Assembly: GCA_000004985.1 (NCBI GenBank) | Contig: GG738896.1 | Reading direction: 5' to 3' (one strand) | Length of the DNA stretch: 64,000 nt | Source: Naegleria gruberi | Taxonomy: Eukaryota | Shown here: piece after piece, positions 50,813 through 64,000 of the stretch | Position numbering within the stretch: the stretch's first letter is position 1 | Layout of the letters: each line of letters begins with the position of its first letter | The notes under the pieces: generated by a model | Told to the model about the DNA's origin: nothing | The model's database searches: none | Seen by the model: only the letters and a program-made list of their open reading frames with translations | Position numbers and translations under genes: made by a program

Positions 50813-51703
50813 GATGATGCTATTTTTTTGCTATTCTCACGGAATGAACAAAATGATGATGAAAAATTATTATTAGGTGTGATGATGAACCTATTATTCT
50901 ATTATTTTGTGAGGATGTATTATTTACAAACTAATGGAATAAATATTAATGAAGAAGATATGAGGAGGTTCTTTTTTTAAAAATTAAAACAATGAAATAA
51001 ATCGTGCGCACTCATCACATAATTTTTTTGAATTTAAATTTTAAAATTGAATTATAAAACCGAATATTCCTATTAATCTTTCTCCTTTTCCACTGCCAGT
51101 TGATGAGATTGATGTTGAACATTCTGTTGTGGCTATTATGATTGCTTCAATAAATGACATTCTTGGTTCATCAAAAGGAAACCAAAAAGGTCCAACACGG
51201 CCATCCTTAAATAAGTGTTTAAATGGAGCATCTCACCTAAAGAGTCAAGGCCAATTGTGTGTTTATTGCCTTAACATGAGTTTGAAATTGCCAAAGACAG
51301 AATTCAAAACAACGGATTTCATTTTTCCCGCCAACATGGAACTCTTATTAAGGAACCATAGCTATTGCCATCGGTACCAAATCGGACAAGATCCCTCCTT
51401 AATATTTTAATGTTGTCTGACTGAAAGGAAGCATAGGATGATGATCTCTGTGGCAAGCCACTAACCTCAATCAATCAAATTCCTCAGTCCTCACAATGAG
51501 GTGAGGAGGAGTATCGACTGGTTAGTGTTCTTCCTTGCTTGTTAACAAAGAGTGCGGAAAGGATAAATTAAAGGAAATTAGCTTCTTGTTTGGAATGAGG
51601 CAAATGTCCTTCTTGATGCTCTTTGCGTTTCTTGTTTGGAATTTTTACACTCACTAACCATTTTATTAAAAAAACAAACAAGATCTGCTGCAGTGGAATT
51701 TAT

Positions 51704-52411
51704 ATGACTCAAAGTAGTGCAATACAGCAACAAGAAGTGGTGGCTAAAAGGCAAACAACAACATCATCATCTCTGAACTCCAACAACATGACTGTTGGAT
51801 CCATTGAAAGTGTCAACCTTAAGCTTGACATGGACATTTCGCCAAAGAAGGTTGTAAATAGAAAAAAGTCTCCAACTAATAAGACACATGTATCATCTTC
51901 ATCAATAACCATGTGGCCACATGAATCAAACTCTGTATTATCCTCTTCTGATATTTGTTCATCGAGTTCATCTCCCAGTAATACAACAACATCTAACAAC
52001 AACATGGATCATCACAAGATTAAAAAGTCTCGGAAAACCATCAAGTACGAAACACATGTTTTTACATGCAATGACGAACCACTAGTAGCATCAAAAAGAA
52101 AACTTATTGCCAAGTATGATTTGTTACGAGTGCTGCATTTACCTCAAACTTTGGCAAGTCAGGTACTGGGGTGTAGTTTCTCAACATTGAAGAGAAGATT
52201 CTACGAATCGAAAGAGGACTTGGGAATTGAGAAATGGCCTCAGTTTTATCAGGAAGTGAGGCATTTACCAATATTCGAGTACATTTATCCAATGTCTCTA
52301 ACATTTATTTTGAATCCTGTAAATAGACACAAAAAAACATCTTATTCAGACTTGACACCTCCGTACATTTCTGACTCTGAGGTGAGGAATCATATGGAAT
52401 ATCCAAACTAG
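51704..52411 (+). CDS. Divergent RWP-RK-like domain protein, a paralogue of the 19190 gene, with a Ser/Asn-rich N-terminus.
   Basis: Track ORF 51623..52411, first ATG at 51704. 'KYDLLRVLHLPQTLASQVLGCSFSTLKRRFYESKEDLGIEKWPQ' parallels '...YFNAPQVMAARLLNVSVSTLKRRFYEMYEGRWPYQK' of the 19190 gene. RWP is replaced by KWP. Confidence 0.4.
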   Translation: MTQSSAIQQQEVVAKRQTTTSSSLNSNNMTVGSIESVNLKLDMDISPKKVVNRKKSPTNKTHVSSSSITMWPHESNSVLSSSDICSSSSSPSNTTTSNNNMDHHKIKKSRKTIKYETHVFTCNDEPLVASKRKLIAKYDLLRVLHLPQTLASQVLGCSFSTLKRRFYESKEDLGIEKWPQFYQEVRHLPIFEYIYPMSLTFILNPVNRHKKTSYSDLTPPYISDSEVRNHMEYPN

Positions 52412-52687: not shown

Positions 52688-54777
52688 TTATTCAACAAAA
52701 TCTTTCAAACACTTGATGTTATCAGCAATAACATTTACATTTGTATCAGATTTAGGATAAAAACAGAAGAAACGAGTAGTAATATGTTCTGCTTGTGGAA
52801 CGACATAGTAAGGAGAAGCAGTAGTTGGAACACCAGGTGCCTTGTTAACTTCACAAATCATAACACAACGCAAATTACTGACATTACCAAATTGAGATTT
52901 GGCCCAAGAAGTACCCATTCTTGAATAACCAAAGCTAGTAGCTGATTCTCTGGCCATGTATACCCCAGGCCCGTATGCTGCGCCAGTGGTCATGAGCTTG
53001 GTATTGGAAGCATTGACCAAACCATTTCTAAGAATGGAGTGGAAGTTTTCGATGGCTGAACCATGGAATGCCCAGTCTATAATTTTTTTAAAAATTAATT
53101 GCATAATAATACTTACAAGAACCATACTTCTTTCTGTTTTGAGAGAAGGTGGCAGCCTTTTCTGGGTTATCCATCATCATTATGTATTGATATTGAGTTT
53201 GCATTTCTTGAATTCTCTTCTTTTCGGGCATTTTTACAATAGCACTGTTCAATAGTTTTAAATATAAAAATAAACATTCCAACTTACCATCTCTTACAAC
53301 TCAATAGCCATCTCAAAATTTCATAAGCCTCAGGATGTAAAAACTTTCTGAGTTCAGATTCATTTTCACAGTGATTTTTCATTTCAGCAATAGAAGGAAG
53401 TCTGTCGAGAGCTTGTACAACTGAATTAAAGTTCTTTGTGGATCCCTTTATCAAATATTCTGGGAATGGATCGAAAATGAGTTCCTTTCTACCACTGGTA
53501 GCTGCTGAATAGGCCATACTCACCATGATATCGACGACGTCTCCATTTTCTAAAATATCAGTGTGAATAGATGAGGGACAAATGACAATTGGAATGGAAT
53601 TGCATACACCAAGTTCGATATACTCAAATTGGCATTTGAATTTTGTACAAATAACAGGTCTATTTTCTTGTGAAACAGGGAGCAAATCGTGGCACTCAAT
53701 AGAATCATCACAACCACAACAAAAGTGATTACATGATTGTACTCTGAGTACAAGATAGGTCAACATTTCCAATATAAAGTTTGTCTTTGGTTCATGTCCT
53801 GAAACGAGAGCCTTATCGTAAGTGTACAAATTTTGTTGAATATATCCACATTCTCTCAACAATTCTTCGGCAGCCTCTGGAATAACATTGGTATAATACA
53901 AAGCAAGAGCTTTAGCTGTATGAATCTTCTTTTCCTTGAGGAATTTGCTAATAATTTCCTTTTTTTCCTTTTGAGTAGTCTTTGAACTCCATTGAGCTAA
54001 TTTCAAATCTGCAGCACCAAATCTAGTTGTCTTGTCAAACTTTAATTGCTCCCATCTAAAATCAATATATTTAGTGAGAACGTGTTCCATTTGTTCAGCA
54101 AAACCACTTCTCAAGTGAGCCAACTCTGGTTTGTATTGAACTCTTGGTGATGTGTCGTGAGTTAAATAATCTGGAGCAAAGTTAATTGACATGGTAAACC
54201 AATTGTTTTGAGAATTTATACCATACTCCTTTTTCATTTCAGTAGTCATGTCATCAACAATAACATTGAGTCTGACATTGTAAATTTGACTGATAAGAGA
54301 AACAAATTTGGTATCAAAATAAGTTTTTGCATCATTAACATGGCAAGTGAGTTGATCTTGCATTTCTCCATCTTCTTCAAAATCATCAACCATGTCATCA
54401 TCATCAAGGTCGAAAATCTTTTGACTATTTCCCTTTCCAGTACCAGGTGTTGGTGTTCCGACTTCATTCATCAAGTAGTCATCTCTCTTCTGGACGAGAC
54501 TATCCATGAAGGTTTTGATTGTATTTTCCAAACCATTTTGTATTTCAATATATTCCTCATTTCCATCATATGTTGCACAGATCAAATCTTCGGAAACTTT
54601 AACAATATGACAAAGAAACTCTTTCAACCCGAAAAAATCAACATTAATGTCCAACTCTAACTCTCCAGGACCAAAATTGACAATACGAAACGTTCTAACA
54701 ACAGGATCTTCACCCTTCTTGAACTCTCCAAGTAATTCAGAGAGACGTTCCTTTGTCAATACACTACTACTGGACAT
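52688..54777 (-). CDS. PARP6/PARP8-like mono-ADP-ribosyltransferase. Three exons: join(54777..53288, 53244..53117, 53076..52688).
   Basis: Track ORF 53284..54957 has its real ATG at 54777 ('MSSSSVLTKE...'). It encodes a Cys-rich central region 'CNHFCCGCDDSIECHDLLPVSQENRPVICTKFKCQFEY'. Its apparent stop is a donor, TG|GTAAGT at 53287. A 43-nt intron ends at the GAACAG acceptor at 53245. The next exon (within ORF 53088..53282) ends at T|GTAAGT at 53116. A 40-nt intron then leads into ORF 52688..53125. That ORF encodes the PARP catalytic signature 'WAFHGSAIENFHSILRNGL...TTGAAYGPGVYMARES...PYYVV' (the H-G-S ... Y ... Y/E ART triad region). All junctions are in phase. Confidence 0.5.
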
Positions 54778-55357
54778 TTTTATATGTAACAAAATATAAT
54801 ATACTAATTTGATGATGAAGATGTTGATAATCAAGTTGTTTTGTTGTTGATCGATGACAAAACGGAAAACACCAAGAACAAGATGAGAATTTTTTTTCTT
54901 GTTGAATTTGAAGCTATTTTTATGGTGATCATTACAAGATTGAACTTGTTCCAACACGCAGAGATGTTAAATAATTTCATGATTTTGTGCTTTGTTTGAA
55001 AATATTGTGTAGCTATTAAGTGGAAGGTAAAACAAAATTCTTCTTCATAATATTTATGTCTTGTTACAGGAACATGTTGTTAAAGAGAGATCCAAAGTAG
55101 TTCCAAGCAGGACTTGTTTTTACCACTTGTTCATTTTGGATCCTCCTCAAATCGTGTTGTAAAATCAAAAAAATTACCATCACATGACGAAAAACCATAA
55201 AAGACGTGATGCCAGATAAACTATTCTACTCCCATTGGTAGATCGTTGAAATCATCATCTCCTACAACCTATTTTAAAAGTAATATTACTCATCATCATT
55301 ATGATAATAATTTAAAAAACATATCACACAGTTTATTATTATTACAATTATAATAAT

Positions 55358-55657
55358 ATGAAGAGAGGCAATCACTTGTTATTCCTAGTAGCATCAATAG
55401 TAGTAGTACTTGTTCTATTATTTTGCTCATCATCCGTAGAGTCACTGAATATCGGCAGCAAGTGCAACAAGCATCACAACAACAAACATTGCAGTAAAAA
55501 GCCGTGCAACATTAAATGTTCTACCAATTTGATGAGTAAGAACGGATGCCAACTATGTAAATGTTGTCCACCCTATCTTCACACTTGTAAATTGTACTGT
55601 AAGAAGGGTTATCAAACCAACAAGTATGGTTGTCAAATCTGCCAATGCATTCCATAG
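55358..55657 (+). CDS. Small secreted cysteine-rich peptide, 99 aa, with 16 Cys in the mature region.
   Basis: Signal peptide 'MKRGNHLLFLVASIVVVLVLLFCSSSVES'. The mature part is 'KCNKHHNNKHCSKKPCNIKCSTNLMSKNGCQLCKCCPPYLHTCKLYCKKGYQTNKYGCQICQCIP'. The motif (N/Y)GCQ(L/I)C(K/Q)C appears twice. Confidence 0.45.
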   Translation: MKRGNHLLFLVASIVVVLVLLFCSSSVESLNIGSKCNKHHNNKHCSKKPCNIKCSTNLMSKNGCQLCKCCPPYLHTCKLYCKKGYQTNKYGCQICQCIP

Positions 55658-55915
55658 GAGAATTAACACAATTTTCTATTAAGTATCCGCGCTGATTCTC
55701 AAGAAATAATTCCATAGCTTGGGAACTAACTATTACAATAAACATGCACCAATTTTGTAACAAGAGATGTCGCTACTATTCTCTGTGCTGGTAGTAACTA
55801 TGTAATTTATTTATTATTAGAAGGAGAATAGGATAGAAAATAATTTGAAAAAAACAACATCAACACCTTATTACATTTTCTTCAAACTCTTTTATACAAC
55901 TGCTTCTTCTTCATC

Positions 55916-58142
55916 ATGTCCAACCCATCAATTGGCAGCAATCACACTGCCCAGAGACGTTTACTTGTACATTTAAATCATTTACTCCCTTCAAGTCAAT
56001 CAGCCGATCTGATTGAATCTAACGTTGTAAGAGGATTGACATCATACAATGATGAAGGTGATCGTTACAGTAGTATTTCCTATAATTATAAACATACGTT
56101 TGATGTTAGGAAAATGACTTCATTCCTCAGTCCTAGCTTTGATAAAAAGGAAATGTATAAATTCCTTGATACACCACTCATGCTTCATAAGAGTATCAAC
56201 ATTACTAAGGAAGAGGCAAGAGAAGTTGCCTTGAAACAAGTTATATTCCTATGTCAATCTGGATATTTCAATGTAACAGATATGAAAAAGAATCCTGAAC
56301 TGTTTCTTCAAAGAATGGAAGCTGGAATTATTGATGCCTCAATGAATGTCAAGTTGGGTGTTCAATTACTTCTCTTTGCTGGTAGTATTATGAACTTGGG
56401 TACCAAGAAACATCATGATTTATACTTGAAAAGAGCAGAAAGATGTGAATTACCTGGTGCATTTGCAATGACAGAAATTGAACATGGAAGTGAGTATTTA
56501 AATTGATATTATTTTGAATATTCTAATGTATTCTAAAGGCAATGTTAGAGAATTGAAAACCACTGCCATATTTGATGAACAAACAAATGAATTCGTCCTC
56601 AATACACCAAACAAGGGAGCTATTAAATGGTGGCTCGGAAATGCTGCTTGTCATGCTACAATGGCAACTGTTTTTGCTCGACTCATTTTGAAAGGAAAGG
56701 ATTATGGTGTTCATGCTTTTCTTTGTCCAATTAGAGATCCAAAAAGTATGGAATTATTGCCAGGTGTCATTGCAGGAGATTGTGGTGATAAGATTGGATT
56801 GCATGGAGTTGATAATGGATTCCTAGAGTTTGAAAATGTCAGAATTCCATACGATAATTTATTGGATAGATTTGGTGGAATTGATTTAGAAAGCAAGTCA
56901 TACAAATCTGAATTTGATAGTGCAGGAAGAAGATTTGCAGCAGTTCTTGGAGAATTAATTACTGGAAGAGTTACCATTGTAAGTGGATCATTGAATTGCA
57001 GAAGAGTTGGATGCATGATTGCCACACGTTATGCAAGTCAGAGAACTCAATTTTCTGCAGGTAAAGAATTCCCAGAACAACCAATTCTCGATTACAAATC
57101 TCACAAAACAAGATTAATGCCAATAATTGCCTCTTCTTACGTTTTTGAGTTTATTAAGAGAAATGTTGTGAAAAAGTATTGTAGATTACATTTGGAAAAG
57201 GTTTCAGATGATGAATTGCAAGAAATTCATGCCCTTTCTGCTGGTGTAAAAGCTGCAATGTCTTGGGATACTCAAACTCATTTGCAAACATTGAGAGAAA
57301 TGTGTGGTGGACATGGTTATTCTGCATATAATCGTTTGGGAACTCTTCGTAATGATCACGATGTTTTGAAAACATTTGAGGGTGACAATACTGTATTAAT
57401 TCAACAATTAGGTGGATATTTATTGAAAGAATTCAGCAAGCAGTTTAGTGGTGAGCTGATATCAGATTCAGTTCAGTATATTAGAAAGCAAGTTGGTGGT
57501 ATGGCTCAAAGAAATCCACTCATTACCAGATTGTCAAGTAAGAAACATTTGAGAAACTCTGATTATCATTTGCAAGCTTTCGAGTATAGAACTGCAAAAT
57601 TATTACAAGAGTGTGCATTGGAAATTAATGTAAACAAGAAGAAACAAGGTATTTTCCGTGCATTCGGTGAATCTCTCCCTAAATTAATTAGATTAGGTAG
57701 AGCCTATGTTGAGCAAGTTGCCTTACACGATTATTTACATGGCATTGAACAAGTTCAAGATCCAGAACTTAAACCTATTTTGAAAATGATGGGAGACTTG
57801 TATGCTTTGGATATTATTTCTAAGAATGTTGGAGACTTTATTGACCTCATCAAGAAGAACAAACTCTCAGCCATTCACGATATGGTTGAATGGTTGTGTG
57901 AAGAATTGAGAGTTCATGCTGTTTCTCTTGTTGACTCATTTGGATTTCCTGATTTTCTATTGGATGCACCAATTGCTAAGAGAGATCATGGTAATTATGT
58001 CCATCACATTCTCAATTATTCTCTTACAAGAAATAAGGGTAATTCAGATTTGATTGGTAAAATGCAAACTGATGTAGTTATGAAGAGAAAGAACGTTGCA
58101 TCTGATGAAGATGTTAATCAAGTGATGGAAATAAATTTGTAA
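55916..58142 (+). CDS. ACOX: Acyl-CoA oxidase (peroxisomal ACOX family). Two exons, join(55916..56489, 56539..58142), with a 49-nt intron.
   Basis: Exon 1 is ORF 55916..56506 and ends '...PGAFAMTEIEHG' at the donor A|GTGAGT at 56490. The TTCTAAAG acceptor at 56538 joins in phase 1 to ORF 56514..58142, giving '[37 protein letters not shown]' (ACOX '[29 protein letters not shown]...IKWW'). The downstream FAD/acyl-CoA dehydrogenase signature is 'GGHGYSAYNRLGTLRNDHDVLKTFEGDNTVLIQQ'. Confidence 0.75.
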
Positions 58143-59362: not shown

Positions 59363-60981
59363 CTTGGGTTTGGGTTGGTGGGGTTTGGGTGAGTTTTATA
59401 CACTTTCATACAATAGAGTGATATTGAAATGTACCCTTTGATATTTCTGGATGGGTAGCATGATTTAGTGATGATTCCGACAATAAAAATCATATATTGT
59501 TCATATAATTATCAAGATATTGTATAATTTATTAAATATAAAGTGGGTAATATTGAATATTCTTTGTAGGAGCGGAAGCACTTATTCTTGTCAGTTGGAG
59601 TCAGTATTGTATTAAGGTTCATTTTAGGAATCTTAAAAAAATACAATAACAACTCACCTGCATCAACATCATCAAGTATATCATCTATATTGAATATAAA
59701 GCAACAGCAAGAATGTATGGAGTTGATTCAACATGATTATTGGATTGGAGAGATGGCAAAAATATTACTATTATTGTATTTGTCAAGTTGGAAGTACCCT
59801 CAGGATCATCAGCGAGGTTTCCTCTTCATCTCTTCTTGTTAGAGAGGTTTTTCATCCACAAGATGGTCATCTTCTTCATTGAAGAGGTTGCTTTATTATT
59901 AAGCACTGAGAGAAGCGTTTTTAAATTTTATTTTGATGAAATAAATCAAAATTTATTACGCACAACACATCAAGAACAACAACAGCAACATGCTGATACA
60001 CCATCATCATCACTGGGTGAATTGGCCATCATTGTTGTATAATTTCTTGGAATTTATTGGATTAACAGTAAATTTTGGAATTACTCTCCTATTGAAGATG
60101 GAACATCAGCAACATCACCAAGATGATCTTCAATTGGATAGTATTGTTTTCAGAAGTGGTTTCACGCTTTTTGTGGGCTCTTTCAACATACCATCATCAG
60201 AATGGTCATCATCTTGTTGAGGGAAGATGTTCAACCTTGTTTTGGAAAGTAGAATATCTTACCACCACTCTATTCTCCTATTTTGATTGGATTGGTGGAG
60301 GTGCCACCACCTCTTCATACATTGGGTTTGGGTTGGTGGGGTTTGGGTGAGTTTTATACACTTTCATACAATAGAGTGATATTGAAATGTACCCTTTGAT
60401 ATTTCTGGATGGGTAGCATGATTTAGTGATGATTCCGACAATAAAAATCATATATTGTTCATATAATTATCAAGATATTGTATAATTTATTAAATATAAA
60501 GTGGGTAATATTGAATATTCTTTGTAGGAGCGGAAGCACTTATTCTTGTCAGTTGGAGTCAGTATTGTATTAAGGTTCATTTAAGGAATCTTAAAAAAAT
60601 ACAATAACAACTCACCTGCATCAACATCATCAAGTATATCATCTATATTGAATATAAAGCAACAGCAAGAATGTATGGAGTTGATTCAACATGATTATTG
60701 GATTGGAGAGATGGCAAAAATATTACTATTATTGTATTTGTCAAGTTGGAAGTACCCTCAGGATCATCAGCGAGGTTTCCTCTTCATCTCTTCTTGTTAG
60801 AGAGGTTTTTCATCCACAAGATGGTCATCTTCTTCAATTGAAGAGGTTGCTTTATTATTAAGCACTGAGAGAAGCGTTTTTAAATTTTATTTTGATGAAA
60901 TAAATCAAAATTTATTACGCACAACACATCAAGAACAACAACAGCAACATGCTGATACACCATCATCATCACTGGGTGAAT
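59363..60981. repeat. Subtelomeric direct tandem repeat with a 959-bp unit. There are at least 1.7 copies, the second cut off by the assembly gap. Each unit begins with a degenerate telomere-like tract (GGGTTTGGGTTGGTGGGGTTTGGGTGAG).
   Basis: 59365-60323 and 60324-60981 are near-identical, offset exactly 959 bp. An example is '...gagttttatacactttcatacaatagagtgatattgaaatgtaccctttgatatttctggatgggtagcatgatttagtgatgattccgac...' in both copies. Only single-base differences were seen, for example tttaggaatc versus ttaaggaatc. Confidence 0.7.
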
Positions 60982-62796
60982 NNNNNNNNNNNNNNNNNNN
61001 NNNNNNNNNNNNNNNNNNNNNNNNNNNNNNNNNNNNNNNNNNNNNNNNNNNNNNNNNNNNNNNNNNNNNNNNNNNNNNNNNNNNNNNNNNNNNNNNNNNN
61101 NNNNNNNNNNNNNNNNNNNNNNNNNNNNNNNNNNNNNNNNNNNNNNNNNNNNNNNNNNNNNNNNNNNNNNNNNNNNNNNNNNNNNNNNNNNNNNNNNNNN
61201 NNNNNNNNNNNNNNNNNNNNNNNNNNNNNNNNNNNNNNNNNNNNNNNNNNNNNNNNNNNNNNNNNNNNNNNNNNNNNNNNNNNNNNNNNNNNNNNNNNNN
61301 NNNNNNNNNNNNNNNNNNNNNNNNNNNNNNNNNNNNNNNNNNNNNNNNNNNNNNNNNNNNNNNNNNNNNNNNNNNNNNNNNNNNNNNNNNNNNNNNNNNN
61401 NNNNNNNNNNNNNNNNNNNNNNNNNNNNNNNNNNNNNNNNNNNNNNNNNNNNNNNNNNNNNNNNNNNNNNNNNNNNNNNNNNNNNNNNNNNNNNNNNNNN
61501 NNNNNNNNNNNNNNNNNNNNNNNNNNNNNNNNNNNNNNNNNNNNNNNNNNNNNNNNNNNNNNNNNNNNNNNNNNNNNNNNNNNNNNNNNNNNNNNNNNNN
61601 NNNNNNNNNNNNNNNNNNNNNNNNNNNNNNNNNNNNNNNNNNNNNNNNNNNNNNNNNNNNNNNNNNNNNNNNNNNNNNNNNNNNNNNNNNNNNNNNNNNN
61701 NNNNNNNNNNNNNNNNNNNNNNNNNNNNNNNNNNNNNNNNNNNNNNNNNNNNNNNNNNNNNNNNNNNNNNNNNNNNNNNNNNNNNNNNNNNNNNNNNNNN
61801 NNNNNNNNNNNNNNNNNNNNNNNNNNNNNNNNNNNNNNNNNNNNNNNNNNNNNNNNNNNNNNNNNNNNNNNNNNNNNNNNNNNNNNNNNNNNNNNNNNNN
61901 NNNNNNNNNNNNNNNNNNNNNNNNNNNNNNNNNNNNNNNNNNNNNNNNNNNNNNNNNNNNNNNNNNNNNNNNNNNNNNNNNNNNNNNNNNNNNNNNNNNN
62001 NNNNNNNNNNNNNNNNNNNNNNNNNNNNNNNNNNNNNNNNNNNNNNNNNNNNNNNNNNNNNNNNNNNNNNNNNNNNNNNNNNNNNNNNNNNNNNNNNNNN
62101 NNNNNNNNNNNNNNNNNNNNNNNNNNNNNNNNNNNNNNNNNNNNNNNNNNNNNNNNNNNNNNNNNNNNNNNNNNNNNNNNNNNNNNNNNNNNNNNNNNNN
62201 NNNNNNNNNNNNNNNNNNNNNNNNNNNNNNNNNNNNNNNNNNNNNNNNNNNNNNNNNNNNNNNNNNNNNNNNNNNNNNNNNNNNNNNNNNNNNNNNNNNN
62301 NNNNNNNNNNNNNNNNNNNNNNNNNNNNNNNNNNNNNNNNNNNNNNNNNNNNNNNNNNNNNNNNNNNNNNNNNNNNNNNNNNNNNNNNNNNNNNNNNNNN
62401 NNNNNNNNNNNNNNNNNNNNNNNNNNNNNNNNNNNNNNNNNNNNNNNNNNNNNNNNNNNNNNNNNNNNNNNNNNNNNNNNNNNNNNNNNNNNNNNNNNNN
62501 NNNNNNNNNNNNNNNNNNNNNNNNNNNNNNNNNNNNNNNNNNNNNNNNNNNNNNNNNNNNNNNNNNNNNNNNNNNNNNNNNNNNNNNNNNNNNNNNNNNN
62601 NNNNNNNNNNNNNNNNNNNNNNNNNNNNNNNNNNNNNNNNNNNNNNNNNNNNNNNNNNNNNNNNNNNNNNNNNNNNNNNNNNNNNNNNNNNNNNNNNNNN
62701 NNNNNNNNNNNNNNNNNNNNNNNNNNNNNNNNNNNNNNNNNNNNNNNNNNNNNNNNNNNNNNNNNNNNNNNNNNNNNNNNNNNNNNNNNNNNNNNN
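60982..62796. other. Assembly gap of 1815 N.
   Basis: Run of n characters. The flanks suggest it hides further copies of the 959-bp subtelomeric repeat. Confidence 0.95.
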
Positions 62797-63500: not shown

Positions 63501-63548
63501 GATTTAATATGTTTTGATGAGAAACTCAAAAGTTATAGTTGACCTATT

Positions 63549-64000
63549 GGGTTTGGGTTGGGTTTGGGTTTGGGTTGGGTTTGGGTTTGGGTTTGGGTTT
63601 GGGTTTGGGTTTGGGTTTGGGTTTGGGTTTGGGTTTGGGTTTGGGTTTGGGTTTGGGTTTGGGTTTGGGTTTGGGTTTGGGTTTGGGTTTGGGTTTGGGT
63701 TTGGGTTTGGGTTTGGGTTTGGGTTTGGGTTTGGGTTTGGGTTTGGGTTTGGGTTTGGGTTTGGGTTTGGGTTTGGGTTTGGGTTTGGGTTTGGGTTTGG
63801 GTTTGGGTTTGGGTTTGGGTTTGGGTTTGGGTTTGGGTTTGGGTTTGGGTTTGGGTTTGGGTTTGGGTTTGGGTTTGGGTTTGGGTTTGGGTTTGGGTTT
63901 GGGTTTGGGTTTGGGTTTGGGTTTGGGTTTGGGTTTGGGTTTGGGTTTGGGTTTGGGTTTGGGTTTGGGTTTGGGTTTGGGTTTGGGTTTGGGTTTGGGT
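63549..64000 (+). repeat. Telomere: about 75 tandem GGGTTT (TTTGGG) hexamers with occasional GGGTT variants. The G-rich strand is oriented toward the window end.
   Basis: Perfect hexamer periodicity to the last base of the window. The TG-rich strand runs 5'->3' toward the terminus, as expected for a right chromosome end. Confidence 0.85.

Follow-up and report, generated by a model that had tools for sequence, protein, structure and literature searches.

The DNA analysed here, referred to as the window, is a 64,000-nucleotide stretch of contig GG738896.1 of the Naegleria gruberi assembly GCA_000004985.1. An open reading frame (ORF) on its plus strand, 55358..55657, comprises 99 codons and a TAG stop in a single exon and specifies an unannotated antistasin-like protein, predicted to be secreted (Pfam PF02822, E 3e-11). 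The precursor, MKRGNHLLFLVASIVVVLVLLFCSSSVESLNIGSKCNKHHNNKHCSKKPCNIKCSTNLMSKNGCQLCKCCPPYLHTCKLYCKKGYQTNKYGCQICQCIP, was read from the ORF listing and its translation together with the region 54800-56300, and the ATG-to-TAG frame agrees with the length of 99 aa proposed in an earlier sequence-only reading of this DNA. The closest in-frame stop 5' of the ORF is located at 55313, with no in-frame ATG farther upstream. An AT-rich (28% GC) intergenic region of 580 nt (54778..55357), presumed to serve as a promoter, separates the ORF from a divergently oriented ARTD15/PARP16-like gene on the minus strand (53284-54777, ATG at 54777; PF18084, ARTD15_N, E 2.3e-9). The ARTD15_N domain sits at the C-terminal end of this neighbouring exon, and the catalytic part is presumably encoded in further exons downstream on the minus strand. 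Farther away, the ORF 51623-52411 (+) gives a sub-threshold match to RWP-RK (23.3 bits against a cut-off of 29.3, E 6e-5) and may represent a transcription-factor gene.

On the 3' side, an AATAAA hexamer 80 nt past the stop (55737..55742, +), a possible polyadenylation signal judging by the sequence match, precedes a gene for a peroxisomal acyl-CoA oxidase (ACOX). Mapping of the Naegleria fowleri and Willaertia magna proteins on the window places this gene at 55916-58142 (+), split by a 49-nt intron into exon 1 (55916-56491) and exon 2 (56541-58142). The large ACOX exon, read at 56514-58139, is 100% identical to the NCBI entry "peroxisomal acyl-CoA oxidase [Naegleria gruberi]", which identifies the window as N. 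gruberi DNA, and shows 75-77% identity to the N. fowleri homologue and 70% to that of W. magna. The RefSeq N. gruberi ACOX model of 601 aa does not begin until 56153, and the sequence matching it stops at 57989. The alignments of the proteins from N. fowleri (756 aa) and W. magna (750 aa) begin at 55946 and 55916, respectively, and run through 58139, beyond both ends of the model, which therefore looks truncated on either side. The stop codon of the small ORF at 55657 lies 258 nt before the ACOX ATG at 55916, just upstream of the oxidase gene as had been noted, and the same homologue mapping puts the ORF outside the ACOX coding sequence and intron, so that it is not part of the neighbour's intron, an objection that had been anticipated. 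With ACOX starting only downstream, the upstream gene divergent, and a hexamer of its own, the ORF is separate from its neighbours; this anatomy fits a stand-alone single-exon gene that would be transcribed independently.

The window terminates in a telomere-like array of 76 perfect tandem copies of TTGGGT (equivalent to TTTGGG) at 63547-64000. TTTGGG is the candidate telomeric repeat of N. gruberi (PMC3622300), and the window therefore probably ends at a chromosome end, which would make the antistasin-like gene subtelomeric, at a distance of about 8 kb. An assembly gap, a run of 1815 N, occupies positions 60982-62796 and is the source of artefactual "ORFs" of 616-632 aa on both strands. Right before the gap there are direct repeats of 100% identity (59364-59663 = 60322-60621 and 59878-60022 = 60837-60981, with a spacing of 958-959), which may stem from a genuine subtelomeric duplication or from misassembly. 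No RNA families were detected by Rfam anywhere in the 64-kb window.

The length of the ORF is by itself unremarkable, as by our estimate chance alone would give about one ATG-initiated frame of 99 codons in a 64-kb sequence of 34% GC. The Pfam match, the 78 HMMER hits and the homologues of 56-58% identity described below are far beyond chance. Codon-usage log-odds rank the frame as the best of the six, yet the score is negative overall owing to the odd composition of the sequence, and constitutes weak evidence. Both the initiator Met with the signal segment and the C-terminal end line up with those of the orthologues.

The N-terminus begins with a basic n-region, MKRGNH, continues with a hydrophobic core of 16 residues, L7-F22, and is followed by CSSSVES; the means of Kyte-Doolittle hydropathy over 11 residues reach 3.45, and small residues occupy positions -3/-1 (V27/S29 or S24/S26). 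By its n, h and c regions, the -3/-1 rule and hydropathy, this heuristic call agrees with the signal peptide claimed earlier, predicted at aa 1-29 (55358..55444, +) with an alternative cleavage site after S26. Both annotated orthologues of the protein are SignalP 6 positive (PMC12482156, Table S3). The mature peptide, of about 70 aa as had been estimated and approximately 7.9 kDa, contains 12 Lys and 4 His and not a single Asp or Glu, with a pI of about 9.3. The sequence-only reading had miscounted its cysteines as 16; a script finds 14 in the precursor (at 23, 36, 45, 50, 54, 64, 67, 69, 70, 77, 81, 92, 95, and 97), 13 of which remain after removal of the signal peptide, namely those of two six-Cys modules and an extra one, Cys36. 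The latter is carried by a short basic linker rich in His, Lys and Asn (aa 30-44; 55445..55489, +), and because the total of 13 is odd, one Cys of the mature peptide should be left unpaired.

The rest of the protein consists of two antistasin-like modules delimited by motif scan, Pfam stretches and alignments. Module 1 (aa 45-69; 55490..55564, +) has the cysteines C45-x4-C50-x3-C54-x9-C64-x2-C67-x-C69, with Asn51 as the putative P1 residue, and module 2 (aa 70-97; 55565..55648, +), which aligns with antistasin residues 29-53, has C70-x6-C77-x3-C81-x10-C92-x2-C95-x-C97. They are joined without a linker, module 2 beginning right after the last Cys of module 1 ("CKCCPP"), and both conform to the six-Cys pattern of the family, C-x(3-6)-C-x3-C-x(9-10)-C-x2-C-x-C. 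The two copies of (N/Y)GCQ(L/I)C(K/Q)C recognised earlier correspond to NGCQLCKC (aa 62-69) and YGCQICQC (aa 90-97). In an alignment of the two-module segments of 24 sequences, which left out the rows of the PMC12482156 supplement, all 12 core cysteines fall in invariant columns; of the conserved glycines G84 and G91 of module 2 are invariant and G63 of module 1 is nearly so. The first conserved Gly of module 1 is replaced by Asn57, while the N. fowleri and Naegleria lovaniensis orthologues keep Gly at this position.

Pfam assigns the protein to the Antistasin family (PF02822, InterPro IPR004094) with 44.1 bits against a gathering cut-off of 21.2, in two stretches, the best of which, aa 70-97, covers profile positions 1-26 out of 26. 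An exhaustive HMMER search of 1.84 billion representative proteins returned 78 matches at E<=1e-3; all those bearing names are animal proteins, either labelled "antistasin-like" or composed of multiple modules, and come from Hydra, Hydractinia, Mytilus, crinoids, and the nematomorph Gordionus. This sequence-profile evidence argues strongly for membership in the antistasin family. Among the folds earlier named for comparison of the Cys pattern, crustin/WAP and EGF-like folds are rejected: Antistasin is the only family given by Pfam at E<=10, and an EGF-like protein, fibrillin, appears among the Foldseek matches only at rank 9 with a probability of 0.01. An AlphaFold2 model built on the 24-sequence alignment has a mean pLDDT of 72, with values of 62-78 over module 1 and about 88 in module 2; the first 9 residues of the linker stay below 50. 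Foldseek fills its best seven PDB ranks with guamerin, antistasin, bdellastasin, and hirustasin, but none of the E-values (0.66-6) is significant; the predicted structure is thus weak evidence that agrees in direction with the antistasin family. A word-indexed homology search gave no matches with the peptide as the query and only the homologue P0133, described below, with a four-sequence alignment, negatives that mean little because the tool is insensitive for a short Cys-rich query. A metagenome scan yielded only distant relatives, at nine loci, of which the closest reaches 47% identity over aa 44-99; an orthologue suitable for dN/dS was not among them.

An antistasin-like family in Naegleria and Willaertia was reported in mSphere in 2025 (PMC12482156). 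It comprises 59 proteins in 10 orthogroups, with 5-9 proteins per Naegleria species and a signal peptide predicted by SignalP 6 in 86% of the 59; the Naegleria proteins have fewer cysteines than the leech antistasins, and outside this family the distribution is approximately 99% metazoan. The type of peptide had been described as often lineage-specific, a view not upheld by a fold family that occurs widely in Metazoa and had been described before from Naegleria and Willaertia. Five N. gruberi proteins are listed in Table S3 of that study: XP_002672169, XP_002672706, XP_002680847, XP_002682412, and XP_002682687. They are the paralogues elsewhere in the genome, a search for which had been suggested as a check, and are 29-36% identical to the ORF product, which is not among them. 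The suspicion that the gene had been missed by annotation is thereby strengthened, as the protein is absent from these RefSeq entries and no exact match of the peptide was found in a 15-billion-protein collection. As that collection likewise lacks the annotated orthologues of N. fowleri and N. lovaniensis, the claim that the gene is unannotated rests on Table S3; nor was an exact match found in a gene-position index, an uninformative negative given that the N. gruberi ACOX protein is missing there as well.

The best BLASTP matches of the mature peptide in Table S3 are the sole two members of orthogroup OG0018770: XP_044543381.1 of N. lovaniensis, with 87.8 bits and 58% identity over 64 aa, and XP_044566046.1 of N. 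fowleri, with 79.3 bits and 57% over 61 aa. The other family members score at most 59 bits, and the N. gruberi paralogues at most 44 bits at 29-36% identity. The closest database homologue, P0133, is encoded on a 670-nt contig of the NCBI assembly GCA_041447055.1; it has 119 aa, is 56-60% identical, and shares with the ORF product the "CKCCPP" junction as well as the additional Cys located eight residues ahead of module 1. It may come from a Naegleria-like contaminant in another genome project. In an alignment of the four sequences (the ORF product, the two OG0018770 proteins, and P0133) all share a predicted signal peptide, the junction "GCQ[LI]CKCCPP", a Lys at P1 of module 2, and a C-terminus 1-2 residues past the last Cys, while the C-x8-C arrangement starting at Cys36 is found in P0133 but in neither of the two OG0018770 proteins. 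Because its best matches are the two members of OG0018770 and because junction, signal peptide, P1 Lys, and termini are shared, we conclude from sequence comparison that the ORF product is likely the OG0018770 orthologue of N. gruberi, one that the reference protein set lacks. It is an additional unannotated member of a family already described in the genus and not a new kind of protein. Another protein encountered in the searches, P0124, is encoded on a JGI metagenome contig of 3389 nt; its 249 aa comprise an N-terminus resembling that of a lipoprotein (..AASLAACGQQ..) and, after it, five antistasin-like modules of acidic character, and it is possibly a bacterial representative of a family held to be almost exclusively metazoan.

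No second module-bearing ORF or paralogue was found in the 64-kb window by motif scan. In neither N. fowleri nor W. magna was an antistasin-like ORF found at a distance of up to 10 kb from ACOX, and none of the other genes of the window was found at the ACOX loci of these species. As synteny is broken there, the absence beside ACOX says nothing on gene loss, and the orthologues must sit elsewhere. Taken together, 55358-55657 (+) appears to be a genuine, intact single-exon gene of N. gruberi without reference annotation, and that its product is a real, secreted protein of the antistasin family we regard as very probable; the earlier description of a small secreted Cys-rich peptide resembling a protease inhibitor is supported by the family match together with the signal-like N-terminus.

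As to its action, the putative P1-P1' bond of module 2, Lys78-Leu79, is encoded by codons 55589..55594 (+), its function being deduced from the alignment to antistasin. In the phmmer alignment C77-K78-L79-Y80-C81 of the ORF product pairs with C33-R34-V35-H36-C37 of antistasin. The antistasin reactive site was reportedly assigned by Dunwiddie et al. in 1989 to Arg34-Val35. The same layout of a P2 Cys, P1 and a P3' Cys is found in hirustasin, where the sequence C29-R30-I31-R32-C33 comprises P2 Cys29 (in a disulfide with Cys48), P1 Arg30, P1' Ile31, and P3' Cys33 (PMC3014083). Lys78 is invariant in the alignment of the four-sequence subfamily, whereas its counterpart in module 1 varies (N/V/A/N). 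Because K78-L79 aligns with R34-V35 of antistasin and Lys78 is invariant, module 2 is proposed to act as a standard-mechanism inhibitor against trypsin-like proteases.

The signal peptide would direct the precursor into the secretory pathway, releasing a very basic mature peptide of about 70 aa composed of two back-to-back minimal antistasin-like modules. The six cysteines of each module presumably pair 1-4, 2-5, and 3-6 in three disulfides. Once secreted, the peptide would inhibit serine proteases in the canonical, substrate-like manner ("standard mechanism"), in which the loop past the second Cys of a module docks in the protease active site; module 2 would offer Lys78-Leu79 as P1-P1', with a predicted trypsin-like specificity, and module 1, whose P1 is Asn51 and varies in the orthologues, would have a different specificity or none. 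Possible targets are the proteases of prey or of competing microbes, or the secreted proteases of the amoeba itself. Characterised antistasin-type inhibitors have ten cysteines and five disulfides per domain, paired 1-3, 2-4, 5-8, 6-9, and 7-10 (PMC6265900, PMC7851590). The ten Cys of the leech type are not found in the ORF product, which has six per module and the extra Cys36; the shortfall holds for the whole Naegleria family, and no protease target has been established for any of its members (PMC12482156). The presence of only the six-Cys core, module 1 with Asn57 and with Asn51 at P1, and the odd number of cysteines count against the mechanism, and we give inhibition by the ORF product about even odds. 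The explanation that best accounts for the observations as a whole is that the ORF is an unannotated N. gruberi gene of OG0018770 encoding a secreted two-module antistasin-like serine protease inhibitor, with a probability of roughly 0.6.

The most serious competitor, an antimicrobial function having been named as an alternative in the sequence-only reading too, is a cationic antimicrobial or membrane-active effector, secreted or phagosomal, in which the antistasin knot would serve as a stable scaffold and which would kill bacterial prey or competitors by means other than protease inhibition. Naegleria is a bacterivore. The composition of the mature peptide (12 Lys, 4 His, zero Asp/Glu, pI >9.2) and the long polycationic Gly/Lys-rich linkers of the orthologues speak for such a role, and the variability of P1 in module 1 (N/V/A/N) is what would be expected if inhibition were not the function selected in that module. 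On the other hand, P1 Lys of module 2 is invariant, a basic character is common to many protease inhibitors, the characterised activity of the family is serine-protease inhibition (PMC7851590, PMC6265900), and a non-exhaustive literature search turned up no antimicrobial protein of the antistasin family. We therefore consider this role unlikely, though worth keeping in view.

Less likely still, the modules could be non-inhibitory binding or structural units, engaged in adhesion, the matrix, the cyst wall or ligand binding, of which the ORF product would be a soluble version. The Naegleria family does include large proteins with 2-11 modules set within Pro/Thr-rich sequence resembling extracellular matrix proteins (Table S3), the top HMMER matches include many-module animal proteins of 2,500-5,000 aa, and the ORF product lacks the four-Cys subdomain with which true inhibitors begin at the N-terminus. 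The subfamily proteins are, however, small (99-152 aa) and contain little beyond signal, linker, and two modules, as the leech inhibitors do, and the conserved basic P1 with the P2 and P3' cysteines in place fits an inhibitor better; a binding role is accordingly held to be improbable. A similarly low likelihood is attached to a more far-reaching scenario in which the heterolobosean six-Cys module would be an autonomous ancestral inhibitor fold or the result of an ancient inter-kingdom transfer, the polycationic subtelomeric two-module subfamily having then been recruited as a dual inhibitor and antimicrobial effector in Naegleria against bacterial prey or intracellular cobionts such as Legionella.

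The weakest reading, an ORF without a protein product, being either a subtelomeric copy that is silent or in decay, or else a piece of the ACOX 5' UTR, could draw on the missing annotation (although genes this short are commonly missed by gene-finders), the mere 8 kb or so to the (TTTGGG)n array, the lost Gly and odd Cys count, and the ACOX ATG only 258 nt away, but is very improbable in view of a frame intact from Met to a stop positioned as in the orthologues, the retention of 12 core Cys, signal peptide and P1 Lys at 57-58% identity across Naegleria species, and an extra Cys in common with the independent homologue P0133. Conservation of the frame, the signal peptide and the core residues makes both the binding role and silent or pseudogene status less likely than the preferred reading of a secreted inhibitor.

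The ORF is the sixth antistasin-like gene of N. gruberi, overlooked both by the reference annotation and by the comparative study of 2025. OG0018770, seemingly confined to the pathogen N. fowleri and its sister species N. lovaniensis, is on this evidence present also in the non-pathogenic N. gruberi, and the inferences of gene gain and loss, as well as any reading that links the orthogroup to pathogenicity, need correcting. The ORF is also a concrete case of the under-calling of short secreted Cys-rich genes in protist genomes. At about 8 kDa its product is among the smallest members of the Naegleria family, which makes it a convenient candidate for a first inhibition assay of a six-Cys-only protein; its practical value is modest.

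The proteins most similar to the ORF product are those of OG0018770, XP_044566046.1 (129 aa) and XP_044543381.1 (152 aa), which have the same order of signal peptide, basic linker, and two fused six-Cys modules, the same "GCQ[LI]CKCCPP" junction and P1 Lys in module 2, and 57-58% identity over the two modules. They differ in the linker, a short His/Asn/Lys segment with Cys36 in the ORF product and a 40-70-aa Gly/Lys-rich sequence in the orthologues; moreover, in module 2 of the ORF product 2-3 residues (YLHT) are inserted ahead of the second Cys, in its module 1 Asn takes the place of the Gly that comes after the third Cys, and its gene is unannotated and not syntenic relative to ACOX. The five annotated N. 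gruberi proteins have the same Pfam domain in the same organism, mostly with a signal peptide (Table S3), but belong to other orthogroups, comprise 1-6 modules with other linkers, and are encoded at other loci. Tandem six-Cys modules of the same spacing also occur in the secreted "antistasin-like" proteins of Hydra vulgaris (XP_065667397.1), Hydractinia (XP_057307790.1), and Mytilus (XP_063436222.1), which are significant HMMER matches with 35-43% identity to the ORF product; these metazoan proteins have more modules, usually joined by Pro-rich linkers of 3-5 residues, and are acidic, whereas the ORF product is polycationic. The leech inhibitors (MEROPS I15: antistasin 1SKZ, hirustasin 1HIA/1BX7, bdellastasin 1C9P, guamerin 3BG4) share with it the C-terminal six-Cys core, the C-x3-C arrangement around the reactive bond, a basic P1 right after the P2 Cys, and secretion, predicted in the case of the ORF product, and antistasin likewise consists of two tandem domains. 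Their domains have ten cysteines and five disulfides, including an N-terminal four-Cys subdomain that the ORF product lacks, and the identity is only about 20-34%; inhibition has been proven experimentally for the leech proteins, while the ORF product is known from its sequence. The hosts differ as well, N. gruberi being a free-living amoeboflagellate and, unlike the leech, not a blood feeder.
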